Shown piece after piece: positions 20,172 to 61,088 of a stretch of 64,000 nt of DNA. The notes under the pieces were generated by a model. That model did not search any database. It was not told where the DNA came from and saw nothing but the letters and a program-made list of their open reading frames with translations. Source of the DNA: an uncultured Candidatus Saccharibacteria bacterium (GTDB lineage: Bacteria > Patescibacteriota > Saccharimonadia > Saccharimonadales > UBA7683). How positions within the stretch are numbered: the first letter of the stretch is position 1; every line of letters starts with the position of its first letter. Made by a program: the position numbers and the translations under genes. The stretch is from NCBI GenBank assembly GCA_964632215.1, contig CAZWBG010000001.1, positions 431,863 to 495,862 on the forward strand, written 5' to 3'.

Positions 20172-20206
20172 AAAAAAGAATCGAACTTATTATCAGATGA
20201 GAAAAA
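20172..20206 (-). repeat. Decayed copy of the tRNA-Glu 3' half (candidate distal att scar of the island)
   Basis: aaaaagaatcgaact--tattatcag-atgagaaaa aligns by eye with aaggagaatcgaactcctattgccaggatgaaaac of tRNA-Glu (26031-26066). AGAATCGAACT is an exact 11-mer. The rest is degenerate with two small gaps. Confidence 0.35.
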
Positions 20207-42086: not shown

Positions 42087-42143
42087 TGCCTAACTCCGTA
42101 CTTAGTAATTACAGCTAGTTATATCCTTATTGAGGTGAGTATG

Positions 42144-42219
42144 CAAGCACAAGCAAAAAGGCTCCTCTAGCCAAGAAGTCTTTCATAGTGCTTATGTTTG
42201 GAGGGTCAGGAGGGACTAC
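42144..42219 (-). repeat. Cassette junction unit R6 (best tRNA-Lys 3'-end copy)
   Basis: tggagggtcaggagggact (42199-42217) matches tggagggccaggagggact of the intact tRNA at 18 of 19 positions. It is followed in the gene direction by AACATAAGCACTATGAAAGACTTC... and a T-run. Confidence 0.7.
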
Positions 42220-42273
42220 TTTGTATAATCTGCAAGCTTTCTCGAAGCGAGCTTCTGCGAGAGCTCTTGATTA
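42220..42273 (-). repeat. Family-1 hairpin insert splitting a pseudo-tRNA-Lys 3' half in the T-loop
   Basis: It is flanked by the tRNA-Lys 3'-end copy (42199-42219) and tcgaaccctcgacac (42274-42288, 15/15 identical to the tRNA). It is homologous to the insert at 48934-48991 and contains TTCTGCGA at 42253-42260. Confidence 0.6.
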
Positions 42274-42333
42274 TCGAACCCTCGACACTAAATCTGCTTC
42301 GCATATTTGTCTAGGGTTCAAGCCCTAAACATT

Positions 42334-42387
42334 CCAAAACAAAAACTCCCGAGATGGGAGTTCTTATTTTGGAGGGCTATAGTGGAC
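42334..42387 (-). repeat. Cassette junction unit R7
   Basis: Minus strand reads GTCCACTATAGCCCTCCA, then AAATAAG. The hairpin AACTCCC-atctc-GGGAGTT follows, then TTTTGTTTTGG. Confidence 0.55.
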
Positions 42388-42464
42388 ATTATCGTAACTG
42401 AAATAACAATTTGTAATTCTTGAACGTCTCTGTAGTGTTCCAAGAAACTTGTCTAAATGTAATT

Positions 42465-42488
42465 GGGCCGCGCAGAAATGCGCGGCCC
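42465..42488 (-). terminator. Perfect 10-bp GC hairpin after the G+C-rich cassette gene
   Basis: GGGCCGCGCA-gaaa-TGCGCGGCCC, located 65 nt past the stop at 42553. Confidence 0.5.
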
Positions 42489-42552
42489 GAGATCGGTTGC
42501 CCGTACGTTAATCTGCGAAGATCTCATTTACGCAGCGTATATGGATGGGCGG

Positions 42553-42879
42553 CTACCCGATGACCACCTGGCCGTTCACGGTCACCCGCTCGATGTCCCC
42601 GGTGTGGGAACCTCTGCTGCCGAAGTAGATCGGCGCTCCCAGCCGGAGGTAGCGGTCCATGACCACATTCTCCGGGAGGGGCGGGTAGTGCTTCCGGTTG
42701 GTGGTGGTGATCGACACTCCCTGGATGGTCGTGCGCTGGGCACGGGTCCCTTGGATGGTGACGAAGCACCAGGTGGAGCTACGGGTCGAGACCCGCACCA
42801 CCTGGCCCGGCAAGGCCCGACTCATGTCGTACTCCCGAGTGGGAGTGCGACGGTCCTGGTTTGCAAGCTCGGTTGCCAT
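42553..42879 (-). CDS. Hypothetical protein, strongly G+C-rich (cassette 7)
   Basis: AGGAGG lies 8 nt upstream of the ATG at 42879. Three overlapping alternative ORFs in other frames are judged spurious. No motif recognised. Confidence 0.55.
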   Translation of the reverse strand: MATELANQDRRTPTREYDMSRALPGQVVRVSTRSSTWCFVTIQGTRAQRTTIQGVSITTTNRKHYPPLPENVVMDRYLRLGAPIYFGSRGSHTGDIERVTVNGQVVIG

Positions 42880-42956
42880 AATGTTGGGCCTCCTATTGGC
42901 TCAACTAACCCCTAGCCTGTGCTAGGGTAACCTTCATCCTGTATGTAGGTTATGTT

Positions 42957-42985
42957 AATAATAAACTATGTTTCGATATTTGTCA
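42957..42985 (-). promoter_or_regulatory. Sigma70-like promoter of the G+C-rich cassette gene
   Basis: Minus strand reads TTGACA (42980-42985), a 17-nt spacer, then TATTAT (42957-42962). Confidence 0.5.
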
Positions 42986-43085
42986 ATACCTGAATTAAAT
43001 TATACGGGGATTATTTCACTAAAGAACAAACTTTTTTTAATGTAAATTTCCCAACCGACGACTATATCAAAGTTCGAGAGTATAT

Positions 43086-43134
43086 AAAAAGACCTCTAGA
43101 GAAGTCTTTTAAGAACAGTTAATGGAGGGACTCG
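43086..43134 (-). repeat. Cassette junction unit R8 (shortened tRNA-Lys 3' end + hairpin)
   Basis: tggagggactcg equals the tRNA-Lys 3' end with an internal deletion between its two GAGGG repeats. In the gene direction, the 9-bp hairpin AAAGACTTC/GAGGTCTTT and TTTTTATATAC follow. Confidence 0.55.
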
Positions 43135-43223
43135 GTCACATTCTGCGACCCCGAAACTTTCATACTTATGGCATAGCCACAAATCTGAAAGGTTTCCTTG
43201 CGAAATACCACTGGCATTTCTCA
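43135..43223 (-). repeat. Family-2 hairpin insert next to tRNA-Lys
   Basis: It shares two hairpins with 60752-60838: GGTCrC-attct-GCGACC, and GAAATrCC-nnn-GGCATTTCTC. TTCTGCGA lies at 43141-43148. Confidence 0.6.
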
Positions 43224-43290
43224 CCCTATCGGGTTCGAGCACGCCGCTAAATTTCCAATTTAAAAATCCACATAAAGTGGATTCATAAAT

Positions 43291-43367
43291 TGGAGGGCCA
43301 GGAGGGACTCGAACCCTCGACACCCTGCTTAAGAGGCAGGTGCTCTAACCAGCTGAGCTACTGGCCC
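43291..43367 (-). tRNA. tRNA-Lys (anticodon CUU), CCA encoded
   Basis: GGGCCAG ta GCTC agctggtta GAGC a CCTGC ctCTTaa GCAGG gtgtc GAGGG ttcgagt CCCTC CTGGCCC t CCA. Confidence 0.9.
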
Positions 43368-43483
43368 GTATTTAGTTTTGGAATGTACAAACTCAGTTTA
43401 TTTATAGCCGATACATAGGTGAGATTTAGTTAGAACACTTGGTGCTACATAACGCTACTCGACAACAAGTGTCTCGGACAGGG

Positions 43484-43505
43484 CAGCTGAGCTACTGGCC
43501 GTATC
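43484..43505 (-). repeat. Duplicate of the tRNA-Lys 5' end plus upstream flank
   Basis: cagctgagctactggcc-gtat repeats 43350-43372 (cagctgagctactggcccgtat) with one deletion, 117 nt upstream of the gene. Confidence 0.5.
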
Positions 43506-43590
43506 TAAAACGAAGATGCGCTTCAGAACAACTGGCTACTATAACAGATTGAACGCTTGATGTAAATCATGCTTAGGTTAAGATAAAGAT

Positions 43591-48875: not shown

Positions 48876-48918
48876 ACCATGAAAAAAGCCAGGTACAAGA
48901 TCTGGCTTTTTTCATGGT
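48876..48918. terminator. Perfect 17-bp palindrome (bidirectional hairpin) abutting the pseudo-tRNA-Arg end
   Basis: ACCATGAAAAAAGCCAG-gtacaagat-CTGGCTTTTTTCATGGT. The right arm overlaps the first 4 nt of the tRNA-Arg 3'-end copy. Confidence 0.6.
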
Positions 48919-48997
48919 ACACCCGGACGGATTACTAAGGTATAGCCTGCAAGCTTTCTCGAAGTAAACTTCTGCGAGAGCTTTTGGTTATCGAACC
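48915..48997 (-). repeat. Pseudo-tRNA-Arg 3' half split in the T-loop by a family-1 insert
   Basis: tggtacacccggacggatt is 19/19 identical to 49064-49082. A 58-nt insert follows (48934-48991, with TTCTGCGA at 48970-48977), then cgaacc. Confidence 0.65.
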
Positions 48998-49063
48998 TAC
49001 GGTTCGTATTCGCTTCGCGAATATAACCAAACAAAAAATCCACCGCAGGGTAGATTCTTTGTT

Positions 49064-52331: not shown

Positions 52332-52360
52332 TTGATATATCATATGTGATATGTTATAGT
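52332..52360 (+). promoter_or_regulatory. Promoter of the HTH::MurA gene with an embedded palindrome (candidate operator)
   Basis: TTGATA (52332-52337), a 17-nt spacer, then TGTTATAGT (-10 at 52355-52360). The spacer contains ATATCA-tatg-TGATAT (52337-52352). Confidence 0.5.
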
Positions 52361-52364
52361 GCTT

Positions 52365-53891
52365 ATGATGCAAGAATATCAACAGAAAATCGGGGAACTT
52401 ATTTCCCGAATTCGTAATCAACAGGGCTTAACGCAAAAAGAGTTAGCCCAGCGACTTAGTACAAGTCAGAGTGCTGTTAACCGTATTGAAGCCGGGCGAC
52501 AGAACGTCACACTTGAGATGCTCGCTCGTATCAGTGATGTACTTAATAAAGATCTTATCAGTCTTGGCACTGGTTCAGTGAATCTACGTGTAGAAGGCGG
52601 TCATAAACTAAGTGGTGCGGTAGAAGTAAAAGTAAGCAAGAATGCCACCGTGGGCTTACTCTGCGCTGCACTACTCAACAAGGGTACTACTACCCTCAAG
52701 AAAGCTCCTCATATTGAAGAGGTCTTTCGGTTAATCGAGGTATTAACAAGTATTGGCGTACGAGCCACCTGGTTAGATAATGGAGATTTAGAGATAAAGC
52801 CTCCAAAAAAGCTCCAGCTTGAGAAGATGGATGTCAGTGCTGCTCGCAGAACCCGAAGCATTATCATGTACCTTGGTGCACTCATGCATACATATAAGAC
52901 GTTTAAGCTCCCTTATGCTGGTGGCTGCAAGTTAGGCAAACGTACCGTAGCGCCCCATTTGCACGCGCTTGCCGAATTTGGCGTAAAGGTTGCAACTCGA
53001 GACAATTACTACGAAGTTAAAGTAAGTAAACGAGCCCCTGCTAAACAAGTTGTGCTGTATGAAATGGGTGATACGGTAAGTGAAAATGTCTTGATGGCAG
53101 CTGCCCTAACCGAGGGCATAACTGAAATCCGCAATATTAGCAGCAACTACATGGTGCAAGATATGTGCTTCTTCTTAGAGGCCGTAGGCGTCACTATAGA
53201 GGGTGTCGGTACAAACGCTCTACGAGTACACGGAGTGAAAGAGATTGATGCTAATGTTACTTTTGCTCCAACCGAAGACCCTATCGAAGCAATGAGTTTT
53301 TTGGCCGCTGCATTTACAACCAATTCTAAAATTACCGTTAAACGCTGCCCGATAGATTTTCTACAAGTTGAACTACTCCGATTAGAAAAGATGGGTTGTA
53401 AGTTTAAGGTTTCCAAAAGCTATAAAGCTGAAAATGGCCGAGGCAACTTGGTTGATATTACGACGCTCGATTCACCGAAACTTATTGCCCCAGAAGACAA
53501 ACTACTAGCCCTTCCCCATCCTGGTATTAATATGGACAACCTGCCCTTCTTCGCACCGATCGTAGCACGTGCCAAAGGTACCACATTAATACACGACTGG
53601 AGCTATGAGGATCGTGCTCTATATATGACAGACCTCCGCAAACTAGGTGTAGATGTCAAACTCGCTGATCCTCACCGCGCGTTCATCACAGGGCCAAGCA
53701 CTTTTGTTGCAGCAGATGTTAACTCGCCACCTGCGCTTCGTCCAGCTGTTATTATCCTTATTACCATGCTGGCCACTCCTGGCACAAGCATTCTTCGTAA
53801 CACGTATTCAATTGCTCGTGGTTACGAGGATTTCGCAGAACGCCTTAATAGTCTTGGTGCACATATCACCACTATGCGTGGTGATATTTAG
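52365..53891 (+). CDS. murA: XRE-family HTH domain fused to UDP-N-acetylglucosamine 1-carboxyvinyltransferase (MurA)
   Basis: The N-terminal ~70 aa read GLTQKELAQRLSTSQSAVNRIEAGRQNVTLEML (HTH_3). MurA blocks follow: VEGGHKLSGAVEVKVSKNA, and the active-site loop AGGCKLGKR. The start is ambiguous (GTG 52359, ATG 52365, ATG 52368). Confidence 0.8.
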   Translation: MMQEYQQKIGELISRIRNQQGLTQKELAQRLSTSQSAVNRIEAGRQNVTLEMLARISDVLNKDLISLGTGSVNLRVEGGHKLSGAVEVKVSKNATVGLLCAALLNKGTTTLKKAPHIEEVFRLIEVLTSIGVRATWLDNGDLEIKPPKKLQLEKMDVSAARRTRSIIMYLGALMHTYKTFKLPYAGGCKLGKRTVAPHLHALAEFGVKVATRDNYYEVKVSKRAPAKQVVLYEMGDTVSENVLMAAALTEGITEIRNISSNYMVQDMCFFLEAVGVTIEGVGTNALRVHGVKEIDANVTFAPTEDPIEAMSFLAAAFTTNSKITVKRCPIDFLQVELLRLEKMGCKFKVSKSYKAENGRGNLVDITTLDSPKLIAPEDKLLALPHPGINMDNLPFFAPIVARAKGTTLIHDWSYEDRALYMTDLRKLGVDVKLADPHRAFITGPSTFVAADVNSPPALRPAVIILITMLATPGTSILRNTYSIARGYEDFAERLNSLGAHITTMRGDI

Positions 53892-59495: not shown

Positions 59496-60620
59496 ATGAC
59501 ATTGCAGCGAGTGATCTGGCGAGCTCAAGATGCCTGCAAATTTAGTGTCGTCGACGAAGGAGAGCCCTTTGCTATCAAAGCGACTCCTACCATCACCAGT
59601 TACTCATTCGGTATAACAGTTGGTCTGTTTTTCCGAAATCAGGATACCTTCGGCTACTGGTACTCATCGAACACGTGTGATCTAATCACAGCCTGGCGGG
59701 TTGCCCAGATCCTCTCAAGGATCAAGACAATGCGTAATCGTGGTGGCTACGACTCAACCATGTGTGGCCTTGTTATCGCTATGAACGGTGATCACAATAA
59801 GGACCGAATGCGCGAGCGAGCCAAAGATCTCGGCATGAGTATCCAGGAACTAGACGTCGAGCTCAAGCGACTGAACCAACTGTGGCCCACGCAGAGCGAT
59901 CTCTGTCCTATGTGGGATAAGTTATCTACAAATGAACAAGACAAATTGGCAGGGGTGCTTCGTGACGCGATAGCATCTAACAAGATCGAGGCAAATCAGG
60001 AACTAATTAACCGGATTGAGGTTGCCGAGCTTCGGCTTCGAGACTACGCCCAACAAAAAGAGTATGAGGAGCTACTTATCGCAACGGGTCTCGAACCCGA
60101 AGCGAGCTTGCGACAGCTCTTGTTGGACATCGGGGTTACGAACCTTATCTACACTGTTGGTTTCGGTGGGATAGGGGATCAAACCCACTTTGAGTTCGAT
60201 GATCTCGATCGAGTAATCATGCGATGGTTGATCGGTAGTTTTGGATCCCGTGAGAGAGTTATGCTCGTCACGACAGCGAAGCAACCCGACGACCCATCGA
60301 CTCACTTTAGTGAAGGTGGTGGTGGAATAACGGTACACTGGAATGACTTCGGTGATTTCGGCCATCCTCGCATTATGCTCGGTAGCGAATCTAAGGAGTT
60401 GGTCTCTGTACGCTGGGATCGTGTCACTGAACGATTCCTCTTGACGTTACGTCCCACCGACTTGAGTGAGCGGGACAATAGTCAGGACGTGGAAATGTCA
60501 ATTATCCAACTGCGTACCGATATTGGTAGTACGGACGGGATGCTCAATCCTGGTCAACCCGCTCCGTGGTGTAAGCAACCTAGATCAAGTAGGTCGGGAT
60601 TGCTCCGCAGAAGAACATAA
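59496..60620 (+). CDS. Hypothetical protein (G+C-richer orphan)
   Basis: ATG at 59496 with GGGAG 9 nt upstream, part of ORF 59454..60620. No motif recognised. Confidence 0.5.
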   Translation: MTLQRVIWRAQDACKFSVVDEGEPFAIKATPTITSYSFGITVGLFFRNQDTFGYWYSSNTCDLITAWRVAQILSRIKTMRNRGGYDSTMCGLVIAMNGDHNKDRMRERAKDLGMSIQELDVELKRLNQLWPTQSDLCPMWDKLSTNEQDKLAGVLRDAIASNKIEANQELINRIEVAELRLRDYAQQKEYEELLIATGLEPEASLRQLLLDIGVTNLIYTVGFGGIGDQTHFEFDDLDRVIMRWLIGSFGSRERVMLVTTAKQPDDPSTHFSEGGGGITVHWNDFGDFGHPRIMLGSESKELVSVRWDRVTERFLLTLRPTDLSERDNSQDVEMSIIQLRTDIGSTDGMLNPGQPAPWCKQPRSSRSGLLRRRT

Positions 60621-60633
60621 ACCATGGTGGGTA

Positions 60634-60662
60634 CTGGACTCCGGATTATATCCGGAGTCCAG
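60634..60662 (+). terminator. Perfect 13-bp hairpin after the 59496 gene
   Basis: CTGGACTCCGGAT-tat-ATCCGGAGTCCAG. Confidence 0.6.
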
Positions 60663-60732
60663 TCTCAACCAAAGCTTTAAATACAAATTTAGACTTTTGG
60701 TTGAGAAAAGGTATAGCGAGCTTCTGAAGTAA

Positions 60733-60849
60733 AGTCGGGGTAAAAGGACTCGGTCGCATTCTGCGACCCCGAAGCTACATCTTTCAAAACAAGTTTTGAA
60801 GAGTAGATTTCCTTGAGAAATGCCACAGGCATTTCTCCCCCTTCGACCT
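60733..60849 (-). repeat. Pseudo-tRNA-Pro 3' half split in the T-loop by a family-2 insert
   Basis: gtcggggtaaaaggactcg is 18/19 identical to 60926-60944. An 87-nt insert follows (60752-60838, with TTCTGCGA at 60758-60765). Then comes ccttcgacctc, 11/11 identical to the tRNA T-stem/variable region. Confidence 0.65.
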
Positions 60850-60923
60850 CGTCGTGAATTCGAAGTTTCAGAATCATGACTCAAAACCAAGTAAAAAGCC
60901 TATCCGAAGATAGACTCTTTACT

Positions 60924-61000
60924 TGGTCGGGGTGAAAGGACTCGAACCTTCGACCTCACGGTCCCAAACCGCGCGCGCTAGCCAACTGCGCCACACCCCG
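60924..61000 (-). tRNA. tRNA-Pro (anticodon UGG), CCA encoded
   Basis: CGGGGTG tg GCGC agttggcta GCGC g CGCGG ttTGGga CCGTG aggtc GAAGG ttcgagt CCTTT CACCCCG a CCA. Confidence 0.9.
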
Positions 61001-61088
61001 ATGCTGAAAGCTTAAGCATATAGTTCTCTATTAGGTACTTAAGGACCTGGTTATTGTAGCGCACCAACAGAGAAAAATCTAGTGACGA

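Follow-up and report, generated by a model that had tools for sequence, protein, structure and literature searches.

A Three-Hairpin Module in the T Loops of Partial tRNA Duplicates of Candidatus Saccharibacteria: A Possible Non-autonomous Mobile Element

Introduction

Two kinds of element that are already known, structured repeats between genes and att scars at tRNA genes, provide the closest comparisons for a module of about 90 nt, here called F2, which occurs twice beside tRNA genes in the window, the whole 64-kb stretch of Candidatus Saccharibacteria DNA analyzed here. The MITE-like repeats (REPINs, Correia, RUP and ERIC elements, and the palindrome-associated elements derived from IS200/IS605) are, like F2, small, non-coding, and multi-copy; they have hairpins with paired stem changes, conserved ends and a variable middle, a patchy lineage-specific distribution, and no transposase of their own. 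With IS200/IS605, F2 also shares insertion without target duplication and one preferred strand. However, F2 has no clear terminal inverted repeats, its end hairpins are unlike each other, and no autonomous parent or partner enzyme was found for it; moreover, it targets partial tRNA duplicates, in which it occupies the T loop or a D-stem junction, and its insertion is accompanied by direct and inverted duplication of the target.

The att scars at tRNA 3′ ends resemble F2 units in other respects, namely an intact tRNA with a direct repeat of its 3′ part behind it, a repeat that begins in the T loop (some of the pseudo-halves begin in the anticodon loop), tandem arrays, and cargo genes between the repeats. 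F2 units differ from such scars in that they measure only 175–260 nt and have no integrase, in that the covarying F2 sits where the core site should be continuous, and in that the T-stem 5′ strand is kept beyond F2 and upstream (5′-fragment) versions exist. A further comparison is offered by integron attC sites and the attP hairpin of the CTX phage, which share with F2 a length of ~60–140 nt, a conserved core with variable covarying stems, one preferred strand, arrays, and occasional single-gene cargo. In contrast to the one long imperfect hairpin of attC and attP, F2 forms three separate hairpins; compared with attC, its consensus lacks the RYYYAAC/GTTRRRY cores, there is no IntI or dif context, and most units are without cargo. 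The three hairpins, the missing core motifs, and the lack of an integrase led us to reject an integron attC site proper. Finally, tandem inversion duplication, or template switching at quasipalindromes, gives the same sense-antisense-sense order of tRNA 3′ halves that is seen at F2 loci, but it accounts for the duplicated flanks only, not for the conserved F2 or the recurrence of the T loop.

Patescibacteria carry group I introns in tRNA genes (PMC13011429). These anticodon-region introns are the nearest match in the literature, in which we found no description of T-loop inserts or F2-type repeats in Patescibacteria, and the terms T-loop and T-arm are absent from that report; Rfam 15 likewise holds nothing like F2. 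What is new here is that the inserts lie in the T loop, come in several sister families, are coupled to target duplication both direct and inverted, and are restricted to Saccharibacteria.

Results

Anatomy of the Two Window Copies

Six tRNA genes were detected in the window with ARAGORN and Rfam, and an initial annotation of the sequence had described T-loop inserts of 87–89 nt within partial copies of two of them, tRNA-Lys and tRNA-Pro. Both modules were found as described, with the intact tRNAs adjoining (table 1); the coordinates first given were right within one base, the Pro tail occupying 60734–60752 and not 60733–60751. Read on the tRNA strand, each tRNA was followed by the same series, composed of a terminator-like hairpin, a short spacer, variable-region and T-stem 5′-strand bases identical to those of the neighboring tRNA, the ~90-nt module, and the sequence from the T loop toward the CCA end.

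On the Lys side, nt 57–67 of the tRNA (CGAGTCCCTCC) were matched at 11 of 11 positions (43134..43124), and the shortened tail lacked the 9 nt between two CCCTCC repeats. The 89-nt insert (43135–43223) takes the place of T55 only, and the accc on its other side corresponds to G51–T54 of tRNA-Lys. The inverted degenerate copy of the tRNA-Lys 3′ half, which is followed by a 4-nt turn (GATA), contains GGGTTCGAG, matched at 9 of 9 positions on the + strand, and the reverse complement of the spacer resembled the tRNA-Lys 3′ half with p = 0.003 (300 shuffles). The hairpin and T run past the Lys unit are homologous to the trailer past a unit of a different insert family, family 1 (~42150–42198). On the Pro side, the insert comprises 87 nt (60753–60839), and the reverse complement of the inverted copy matched nt 41–57 of tRNA-Pro at 14 of 17 positions (p = 0.003). 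The Pro copy (W_Pro) carries private substitutions at positions that are otherwise invariant, as expected of a decaying copy. Once the conserved GGGTGAG start is counted, the module length is ~91–94 nt.

Each of two hairpin patterns had 2 exact + strand matches in the window against 0.13–0.20 expected, and the two copies scored 93.6 and 96.4 bits with a covariance model trained on 21 copies that included them both, the next-best match in the window reaching 13.9 bits. Pattern counts and model scores thus exclude chance for the window copies. Separately, a 17-nt copy of the tRNA-Lys 5′ end (nt 2–18) was observed at 43484–43500 (−), 117 nt upstream of the intact gene; it is followed by partly inverted tRNA-like sequence and resembles a module-less remnant of the upstream type described below.

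Table 1. Coordinates of F2 copies, tRNA genes and copies, and neighboring features in the window
Feature	Position	Strand	Remarks
Large serine recombinase, 511 aa	24527–26062	+	Resolvase and Recombinase domains; gene ends inside the tRNA-Glu 3′ part
tRNA-Glu end of the serine-recombinase segment	26022–26096		
Family-1 unit, Lys array	42199–42288	−	tRNA-Lys nt 45–57, 57-nt insert (~42218–42274), nt 58/59–77
Inverted T-arm-like hairpin	42310–42321		GGGCTTGAACCC on the tRNA strand; past the 8-nt tRNA-Lys end
8-nt tRNA-Lys end GCCCTCCA	42362–42369		isolated; terminator next; further unit boundary in the Lys array
ORF108, GC-rich, 108 aa	42553–42879	−	within the tRNA-Lys array; promoter 42986–42958 (11/12), strong terminator 42488–42465
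Hairpin and T run (aaagac..gtcttt) past the Lys unit	43088–43110	−	read from sequence
Shortened tRNA-Lys 3′-end copy tggagggactcg	43123–43134	−	3′ of Lys F2; tail CGAGTCCCTCCA
F2 module, Lys copy	43134–43227	−	covariance model 93.6 bits, E 3.6e-22
Lys F2 hairpin H1	43134–43150		fold, + coordinates
Lys F2 hairpin H2	43153–43196		fold, + coordinates
Lys F2 hairpin H3	43202–43220		fold, + coordinates
Inverted degenerate tRNA-Lys 3′-half copy	43231–43257	−	TGG..CTCGAACCC on the tRNA strand; directly 5′ of Lys F2
Terminator-like hairpin atccac/gtggat past tRNA-Lys	43266–43282	−	center of CCA...TGG palindrome; read from sequence
Intact tRNA-Lys(CTT)	43291–43367	−	ARAGORN; Rfam tRNA 72.2 bits; its 3′ part is the duplicated part
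Family-1 unit beside tRNA-Arg(TCG)	48915–49002	−	
tRNA-Pro nt 57–75 copy	60734–60752	−	sequence match, 18/19; CCA lost
F2 module, Pro copy	60752–60842	−	covariance model 96.4 bits, E 7e-23
tRNA-Pro nt 44–54 copy (ccttcgacctc)	60840–60850	−	variable region and T-stem 5′ strand, 11/11
Inverted degenerate tRNA-Pro 3′-half copy	60854–60889	−	TGGTTTTGAG..GAAACTTCGAATTCACG on the tRNA strand
Intact tRNA-Pro(TGG)	60924–61000	−	ARAGORN, Rfam

Structure, Strand, and Coding Capacity

On the tRNA strand, the F2 consensus reads (A/G)GGGTGAG, hairpin H3, CGCAAGGAAAC, hairpin H2, GTTTCGG, and hairpin H1 (GGTCGCAGAATGTGACC), and the Lys copy follows the same order from a start of AGGGTGAG. The two conserved hairpins first noticed are both real, but there are three in total, as the supposedly divergent middle folds into a third; its sequence is wholly different between subfamilies, with the pairing always kept. 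Among the 21 distinct copies, 95.1% of the cells were paired, and 19 of the 31 pairs showed changes on both sides. None of 500 shuffles reached the observed pairing and covariation, and pairing fell to 26–46% when the partners were slid. The fold proposed from the two window copies was borne out by structure-preserving changes in additional homologs. In the same 21 copies, G-U pairs numbered 39, at 13 pair positions, in the tRNA sense versus 8, at 6 positions, in the antisense; this indicates that the folded strand is the tRNA-sense strand, the strand that the initial annotation had favored. H1 is near-invariant, its single wobble pair being G-U in 18 copies and G-C in 3, and neither the linkers nor the H1 loop vary. 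In palindromic DNA, compensatory-looking changes can also result from template switching without selection (PMC8794818), and the covariation of F2 is subject to this caveat.

Two mechanically called ORFs (43096..43323 and 60585..60890) overlap the window copies, which raised the question of a short peptide encoded by the conserved blocks. No reading frame is stop-free in all 21 copies, the best being open in 15; the lengths of these copies (89–94 nt) change in steps that are not multiples of 3; and the variation is paired in the stems. F2 is thus not coding, and we gave the peptide a negligible chance and rejected it. Rfam at the gathering threshold matched only the six tRNAs in the window, and searches at E values up to 10 over 42100–43520 and 60600–61050 returned no credible match over F2. 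Taken together, the lack of an Rfam match, the lack of an open frame, and the non-triplet length steps exclude known RNA families and a peptide. Further candidates, namely IS110 bridge or seek RNAs, TnpB/IscB guide RNAs, CRISPR-transposon homing spacers, retron RNA, tmRNA, small self-cleaving ribozymes, and DNA uptake sequences, were rejected because the defining anatomy or partner gene was absent or Rfam returned nothing.

Distribution and Genomic Context

A scan of the conserved 22-mer GGTCRCATTCTGCGACCCCGAA against one genome per species (185,579 species genomes) yielded 16 loci, 15 of which belong to Candidatus Saccharibacteria, Saccharimonadales, or Saccharimonas and one to an unclassified "bacterium" MAG; a looser two-block pattern added 4 loci from JGI metagenomes. 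With fuzzy matching and the model, the 20 loci and the window together gave 26 F2 copies of 89–108 nt, all in Saccharibacteria or unclassified MAGs. F2 had no megablast or blastn match in phage and plasmid collections, and viral contigs contained no pattern match for F2, F1, or the F3/F6 family; a phage, plasmid, or viral origin was rejected on these results.

All 18 copies with a tRNA within reach are co-oriented with it, and the neighboring tRNAs are diverse (Lys, Pro, His, Leu-CAA, Leu-CAG, Trp, Gly-GCC, Gly-CCC, Arg-TCT, and Arg-GCG), with F2 lying upstream or downstream. The downstream type was observed at Lys in three species, Pro, His, Leu-CAA (twice), Leu-CAG, Arg-TCT, Arg-GCG, and Gly-CCC. 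There, a palindromic trailer extends from CCA to TGG behind the intact tRNA, and the tRNA 3′ half often follows as an inverted degenerate copy, significant in 5 of the 9 loci tested (p ≤ 0.003); after a short turn come a sense copy from the variable region or anticodon loop to T54, F2, the stretch from R57 to CCA, and a trailer. The turning points of the sense-antisense-sense copies lie in the terminator loop and a few bases before F2. In the upstream type, observed at Pro in L004, Gly-GCC in L005, L022, and L013, and Trp in L008, a tRNA 5′ fragment (nt 1–27 or 1–54) precedes F2, a short inverted piece, a spacer, and the intact tRNA; L008 keeps nt 1–54 of tRNA-Trp in front of F2, with a degenerate anticodon loop. 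Four copies occupy non-tRNA sites (L015, L019, L021, and L023). In L015 and L019, the flanks of F2 pair as a 13-bp stem, and in L021 F2 lies in the loop of a terminator-like hairpin within the first copy of a directly duplicated target of ~50 nt. The original description of an insert in a pseudo-tRNA therefore holds for the T loop of partial copies but has to be widened to tandem and inverted repeat units, D-arm junctions, and non-tRNA hairpins. As a separate observation, L015 has a short tandem repeat, (GGCGTTA)n, ~300 nt from F2 on the tRNA-sense 5′ side, in a chromosomal contig.

In L005 and L012, F2 lies inside tRNA operons with no terminator between, a position from which co-transcription with the tRNAs is plausible. 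Some tRNAs are without a module, for example, tRNA-Glu and Gly/Arg-TCT in the window. Subfamilies of the middle hairpin are common to several species and coexist in one genome: the Pro copy of the window matches L010a, L018, and L015, and the Lys copy (W_Lys) resembles L008, L014, and L017. The upstream arrangement at Gly(GCC) is common to three species, in which the spacers can no longer be aligned, yet the F2 core retains ~95% identity, and H2 and H3 carry paired changes. Among three decayed units, differences fell at 12 of 61 positions of the pseudo-tRNA tail versus 8 of 168 conserved module positions, roughly a fourfold higher divergence in the tail; this comparison is biased, as the module positions were selected for their conservation. 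No empty-site polymorphism was seen among same-species contigs, which were identical to the window where they overlapped it or were broken inside tRNA genes.

We also compared F2 with the hallmarks of transposable elements, including the subterminal hairpins and the fixed 4–5-nt target of IS200/IS605-type elements. One hairpin is placed 3 nt inside the left end and another occupies the right end, and the two do not resemble each other; most copies have G(G/A)G(T/C/G) as the left flank, and the right junction is irregular. Terminal inverted repeats were not clear (GGTCAC and GGTGAG match at 4 of 6 positions), and there was no target-site duplication, as the flanks hold no short direct repeat and T55, instead of being duplicated, is lost. 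In the 185,579 species genomes and the JGI metagenomes, we found no autonomous, longer relative sharing these ends. A classical MITE was rejected for want of terminal inverted repeats, target-site duplication, and an autonomous relative.

Arrays and Sister Insert Families

F2 units form arrays. In L020 (a 668-kb contig), two identical 175-nt units lie past tRNA-Leu(CAG), and the final trailer is a slightly altered version of the trailer of the unit. L010 has three diverged units past tRNA-Lys, between which lie a 162-aa cargo ORF and a remnant of a different tRNA that bears another insert family. The tRNA-Lys array of the window runs from the F2 unit through ORF108, the 8-nt tRNA-Lys end, and a terminator with the inverted T-arm-like hairpin to the family-1 unit; its trailers vary between units, and the outermost is similar to an inner one. 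Chimeric flanks were found as well: in L018, F2 has local sequence on its 5′ side and foreign sequence on its 3′ side. Two different tRNA-Leu(CAA) gene bodies alternate between L007 and L014, each genome having one whole and the other only as a 3′ remnant, and the remnant in L014 and one of the two in L007 carry an insert; this suggests replacement of the whole gene at the locus.

The cargo gave no sign of moving with the units. ORF108 had no Pfam match and no homolog except itself among 5.8 billion proteins, and homologs of the L010 cargo ORF lie in ordinary gene clusters with no modules nearby; the notion of cargo genes traveling with the units was rejected on these grounds.

F2 inserts between T54 and C56, and family 1 and its relatives insert between nt 57 and 58, as do most of the other insert families. 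The family-1 unit beside tRNA-Arg(TCG) is chimeric, with nt 59–77 of Arg-TCG on its 3′ side and a match to tRNA-Arg(TCT) (CCGTAGGTTCGAT) on its 5′ side. When second copies of tRNA 3′ tails were sought within 1.5 kb of each intact tRNA in the window and the F2 loci, 14 of 14 duplicated tails bore a structured T-loop insert of some family; one uninterrupted pseudo-half is present in L007. The families include longer inserts with a GTTTAC-loop hairpin (L012 Asp, L007, and L010), to which the Arg family-1 copy is related through its GTTTAC loop; an insert sharing GCAAGGAA...GAAAC...GTTTCG with F2 (L012 Arg-CCT); and a 35-nt insert in L013. The octamer TTCTGCGA, shared by both window families, had been taken as a hint of one recognition system. 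This suggestion proved weak, with two independent occurrences and 4 more elsewhere in the window; the octamer occurs 8 times against 2.1 expected, 4 of the 8 outside any insert. A looser GCAGAA motif recurs among the insert families.

Neighboring Genes and the tRNA-Glu Recombinase

An all-against-all ORF comparison over the loci revealed no gene conserved beside F2, the most widely shared being a sortase-like protein at 4 loci. At F2 units, a direct repeat of the tRNA 3′ end bounds inserted DNA and the tRNA remains intact, as at sites of tRNA-targeting integrative elements; no transposase or recombinase linked to F2 was found in the 8-kb flanks of 20 loci. Pfam scans of the neighbors and of most larger window ORFs showed housekeeping and small accessory enzymes, and the sole recombinase detected in the 64-kb window by these scans is the large serine recombinase at tRNA-Glu, 17 kb from the nearest F2. 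Its homologs among the F2 loci amount to a C-terminal fragment in L011. No convincing promoter precedes the F2 units of the window.

Two side observations concern this part of the window. The segment at 20.2–26.0 kb has a GC content of 0.40–0.41, below its surroundings, and at its far edge 11 nt of the tRNA-Glu T arm are repeated (AGTTCGATTCT, 20177–20187), with a T run and not the tRNA 3′ end coming next; the 11-nt match alone could be chance (E 0.79). The segment is probably an integrated island, and its excision would truncate tRNA-Glu. At 52359–53891 (+), a protein of the EPSP-synthase/MurA family has an N-terminal helix-turn-helix (HTH_3) domain, an unusual fusion.

Discussion

Our best reading of F2, with a probability of roughly 40%, is a small mobile or recombination module, non-coding and non-autonomous, that is specific to Candidatus Saccharibacteria and persists only in redundant tRNA fragments. 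The anatomy, structure, strand bias, distribution, and arrays of F2 and its absent coding capacity were read directly from the loci, and from them we infer its mobility and the steps that follow. The module would act as a folded single strand of tRNA-sense polarity, with its three hairpins and invariant linkers, and would be placed in one fixed orientation into hairpin loops, chiefly the T loops of tRNA genes, with a left junction at G(G/A)G(T)|GAG. If, as assumed, each tRNA gene of these small genomes is essential and present only once, a copy of F2 would persist only in a redundant partial tRNA duplicate adjoining the intact gene. Such duplicates may arise locally, through template switching at the terminator palindrome (sense-antisense-sense) and recombination between repeated tRNA 3′ ends, the latter possibly growing units into tandem arrays able to trap cargo genes. 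The enzyme would act in trans, and a hairpin-recognizing single-strand transposase or a recombinase are the candidates. F2 is probably also transcribed, given its sense position inside tRNA transcription units. The patchy placement, the occurrence of subfamilies in more than one species, the tandem and nested arrays, the chimeric flanks, the sites outside tRNAs, and the private mutations argue for a selfish element; template switching at the terminator palindrome is in keeping with the sense-antisense-sense flanks, and recombination between repeated tRNA 3′ ends with the arrays. Against mobility, neither a linked transposase or recombinase nor an autonomous relative was found, clear terminal inverted repeats and a target-site duplication are lacking, the right junction is irregular, and no empty-site polymorphism was seen. 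In addition, the conservation at Gly(GCC) and the slower divergence of the module suggest continuing renewal or selection in place, the latter favoring a function.

Function lies at the center of a somewhat doubtful reading, in which F2 is a functional, or RNA-level selfish, structured RNA of tRNA transcription units that is freed by the tRNA processing enzymes, the tRNA fragments being incidental. The tRNA sense of F2 wherever a tRNA is within reach, its place inside operons without an intervening terminator (L005 and L012), the sense-strand G-U excess and strong helix covariation, the invariant linkers and H1 loop, and a core that is conserved while adjacent spacers and pseudo-tRNA tails decay are all consistent with such an RNA. 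However, the window copies have no promoter before them and a terminator-like hairpin between them and the tRNA; copy number and location differ among genomes, with tandem duplicates; and tRNAs such as tRNA-Glu and Gly/Arg-TCT in the window do without the module. In addition, the closing stem formed by the flanks is absent from the D-arm-type copies, the adjoining CCA end decays in W_Pro, W_Lys, and L016, Rfam gave no match, and palindrome template switching can mimic compensatory change (PMC8794818). Removal of F2 as an intron of a real tRNA gene, or as part of a split tRNA gene one half of which it would be, to give a functional tRNA is highly improbable. Its position within a tRNA-like T arm, the group I introns in tRNA genes of Patescibacteria (PMC13011429), and the tRNA-Trp nt 1–54 kept ahead of F2 in L008 speak for it, but every interrupted copy is incomplete, lacking either the 5′ half or the 3′ strands of both the T and the acceptor stem, and the anticodon loop in L008 is degenerate; a group I core would not fit into 91 nt, and the Rfam intron models gave no match. 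Because the tRNA copies are only partial and an intact gene for the same tRNA lies 40–270 nt away, we rejected this explanation.

Alternatively, the whole repeat unit (the tRNA 3′ end from T loop to CCA, terminator, spacer, T-stem 5′ strand, and F2) might be a small circular integrating cassette, with F2 as its folded single-strand attachment site in the manner of integron attC or CTX-phage attP. A recombinase acting in trans would cross F2 with the T arm of a tRNA, and insertion would restore the tRNA and shift the earlier 3′ end outward. We consider this unlikely, even though several observations agree with it: the sequence shared by intact and pseudo tRNAs always begins at one T-loop position (GACC|RANNCC...CCA); perfect tandem units of 175 nt and arrays with single cargo genes exist; the trailers of the Lys array in the window vary, with the outermost similar to an inner one, as successive insertions would leave them; covarying hairpins surround a conserved core as in attC, with one strand favored; and tRNA-linked recombination is present in this genome, where the serine recombinase gene abuts tRNA-Glu. 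On the other hand, the trailer of the unit is homologous to the original local trailer in L020 and L007, so that the units look locally duplicated rather than imported. A move to another tRNA would require a unit that already carries the 3′ end of that tRNA, no integrase is associated with the units, the homologs of the L010 cargo gene elsewhere are not beside tRNAs or modules, attC core motifs are absent, and a single attachment site is hard to reconcile with the upstream (D-arm) type or the non-tRNA sites.

Whichever reading is preferred, F2 units have practical consequences for genome analysis, as they break short-read assemblies at tRNA genes and can be mistaken for pseudo-tRNAs or short ORFs; conversely, the conserved 22-mer is a specific marker for Saccharibacteria. 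A partner enzyme, if found, might prove of practical use as a DNA recombinase specific for hairpins or T arms. At the broadest level, and with rather low odds in our estimation, F2 and its sister modules might be the folded-strand sites of a new T-arm-recognizing recombination system, a tRNA-anchored analogue of the integron, or new structured RNAs borne by tRNA operons. Saccharibacteria and their relatives have tiny genomes and few recognized mobile elements, and their gene exchange is little understood. Hairpin modules at duplicated tRNA ends, together with arrays and orphan cargo, point to an unrecognized recombination route at the tRNA genes of these bacteria, and the system, if real, would build cassette arrays at Saccharibacteria tRNA genes.
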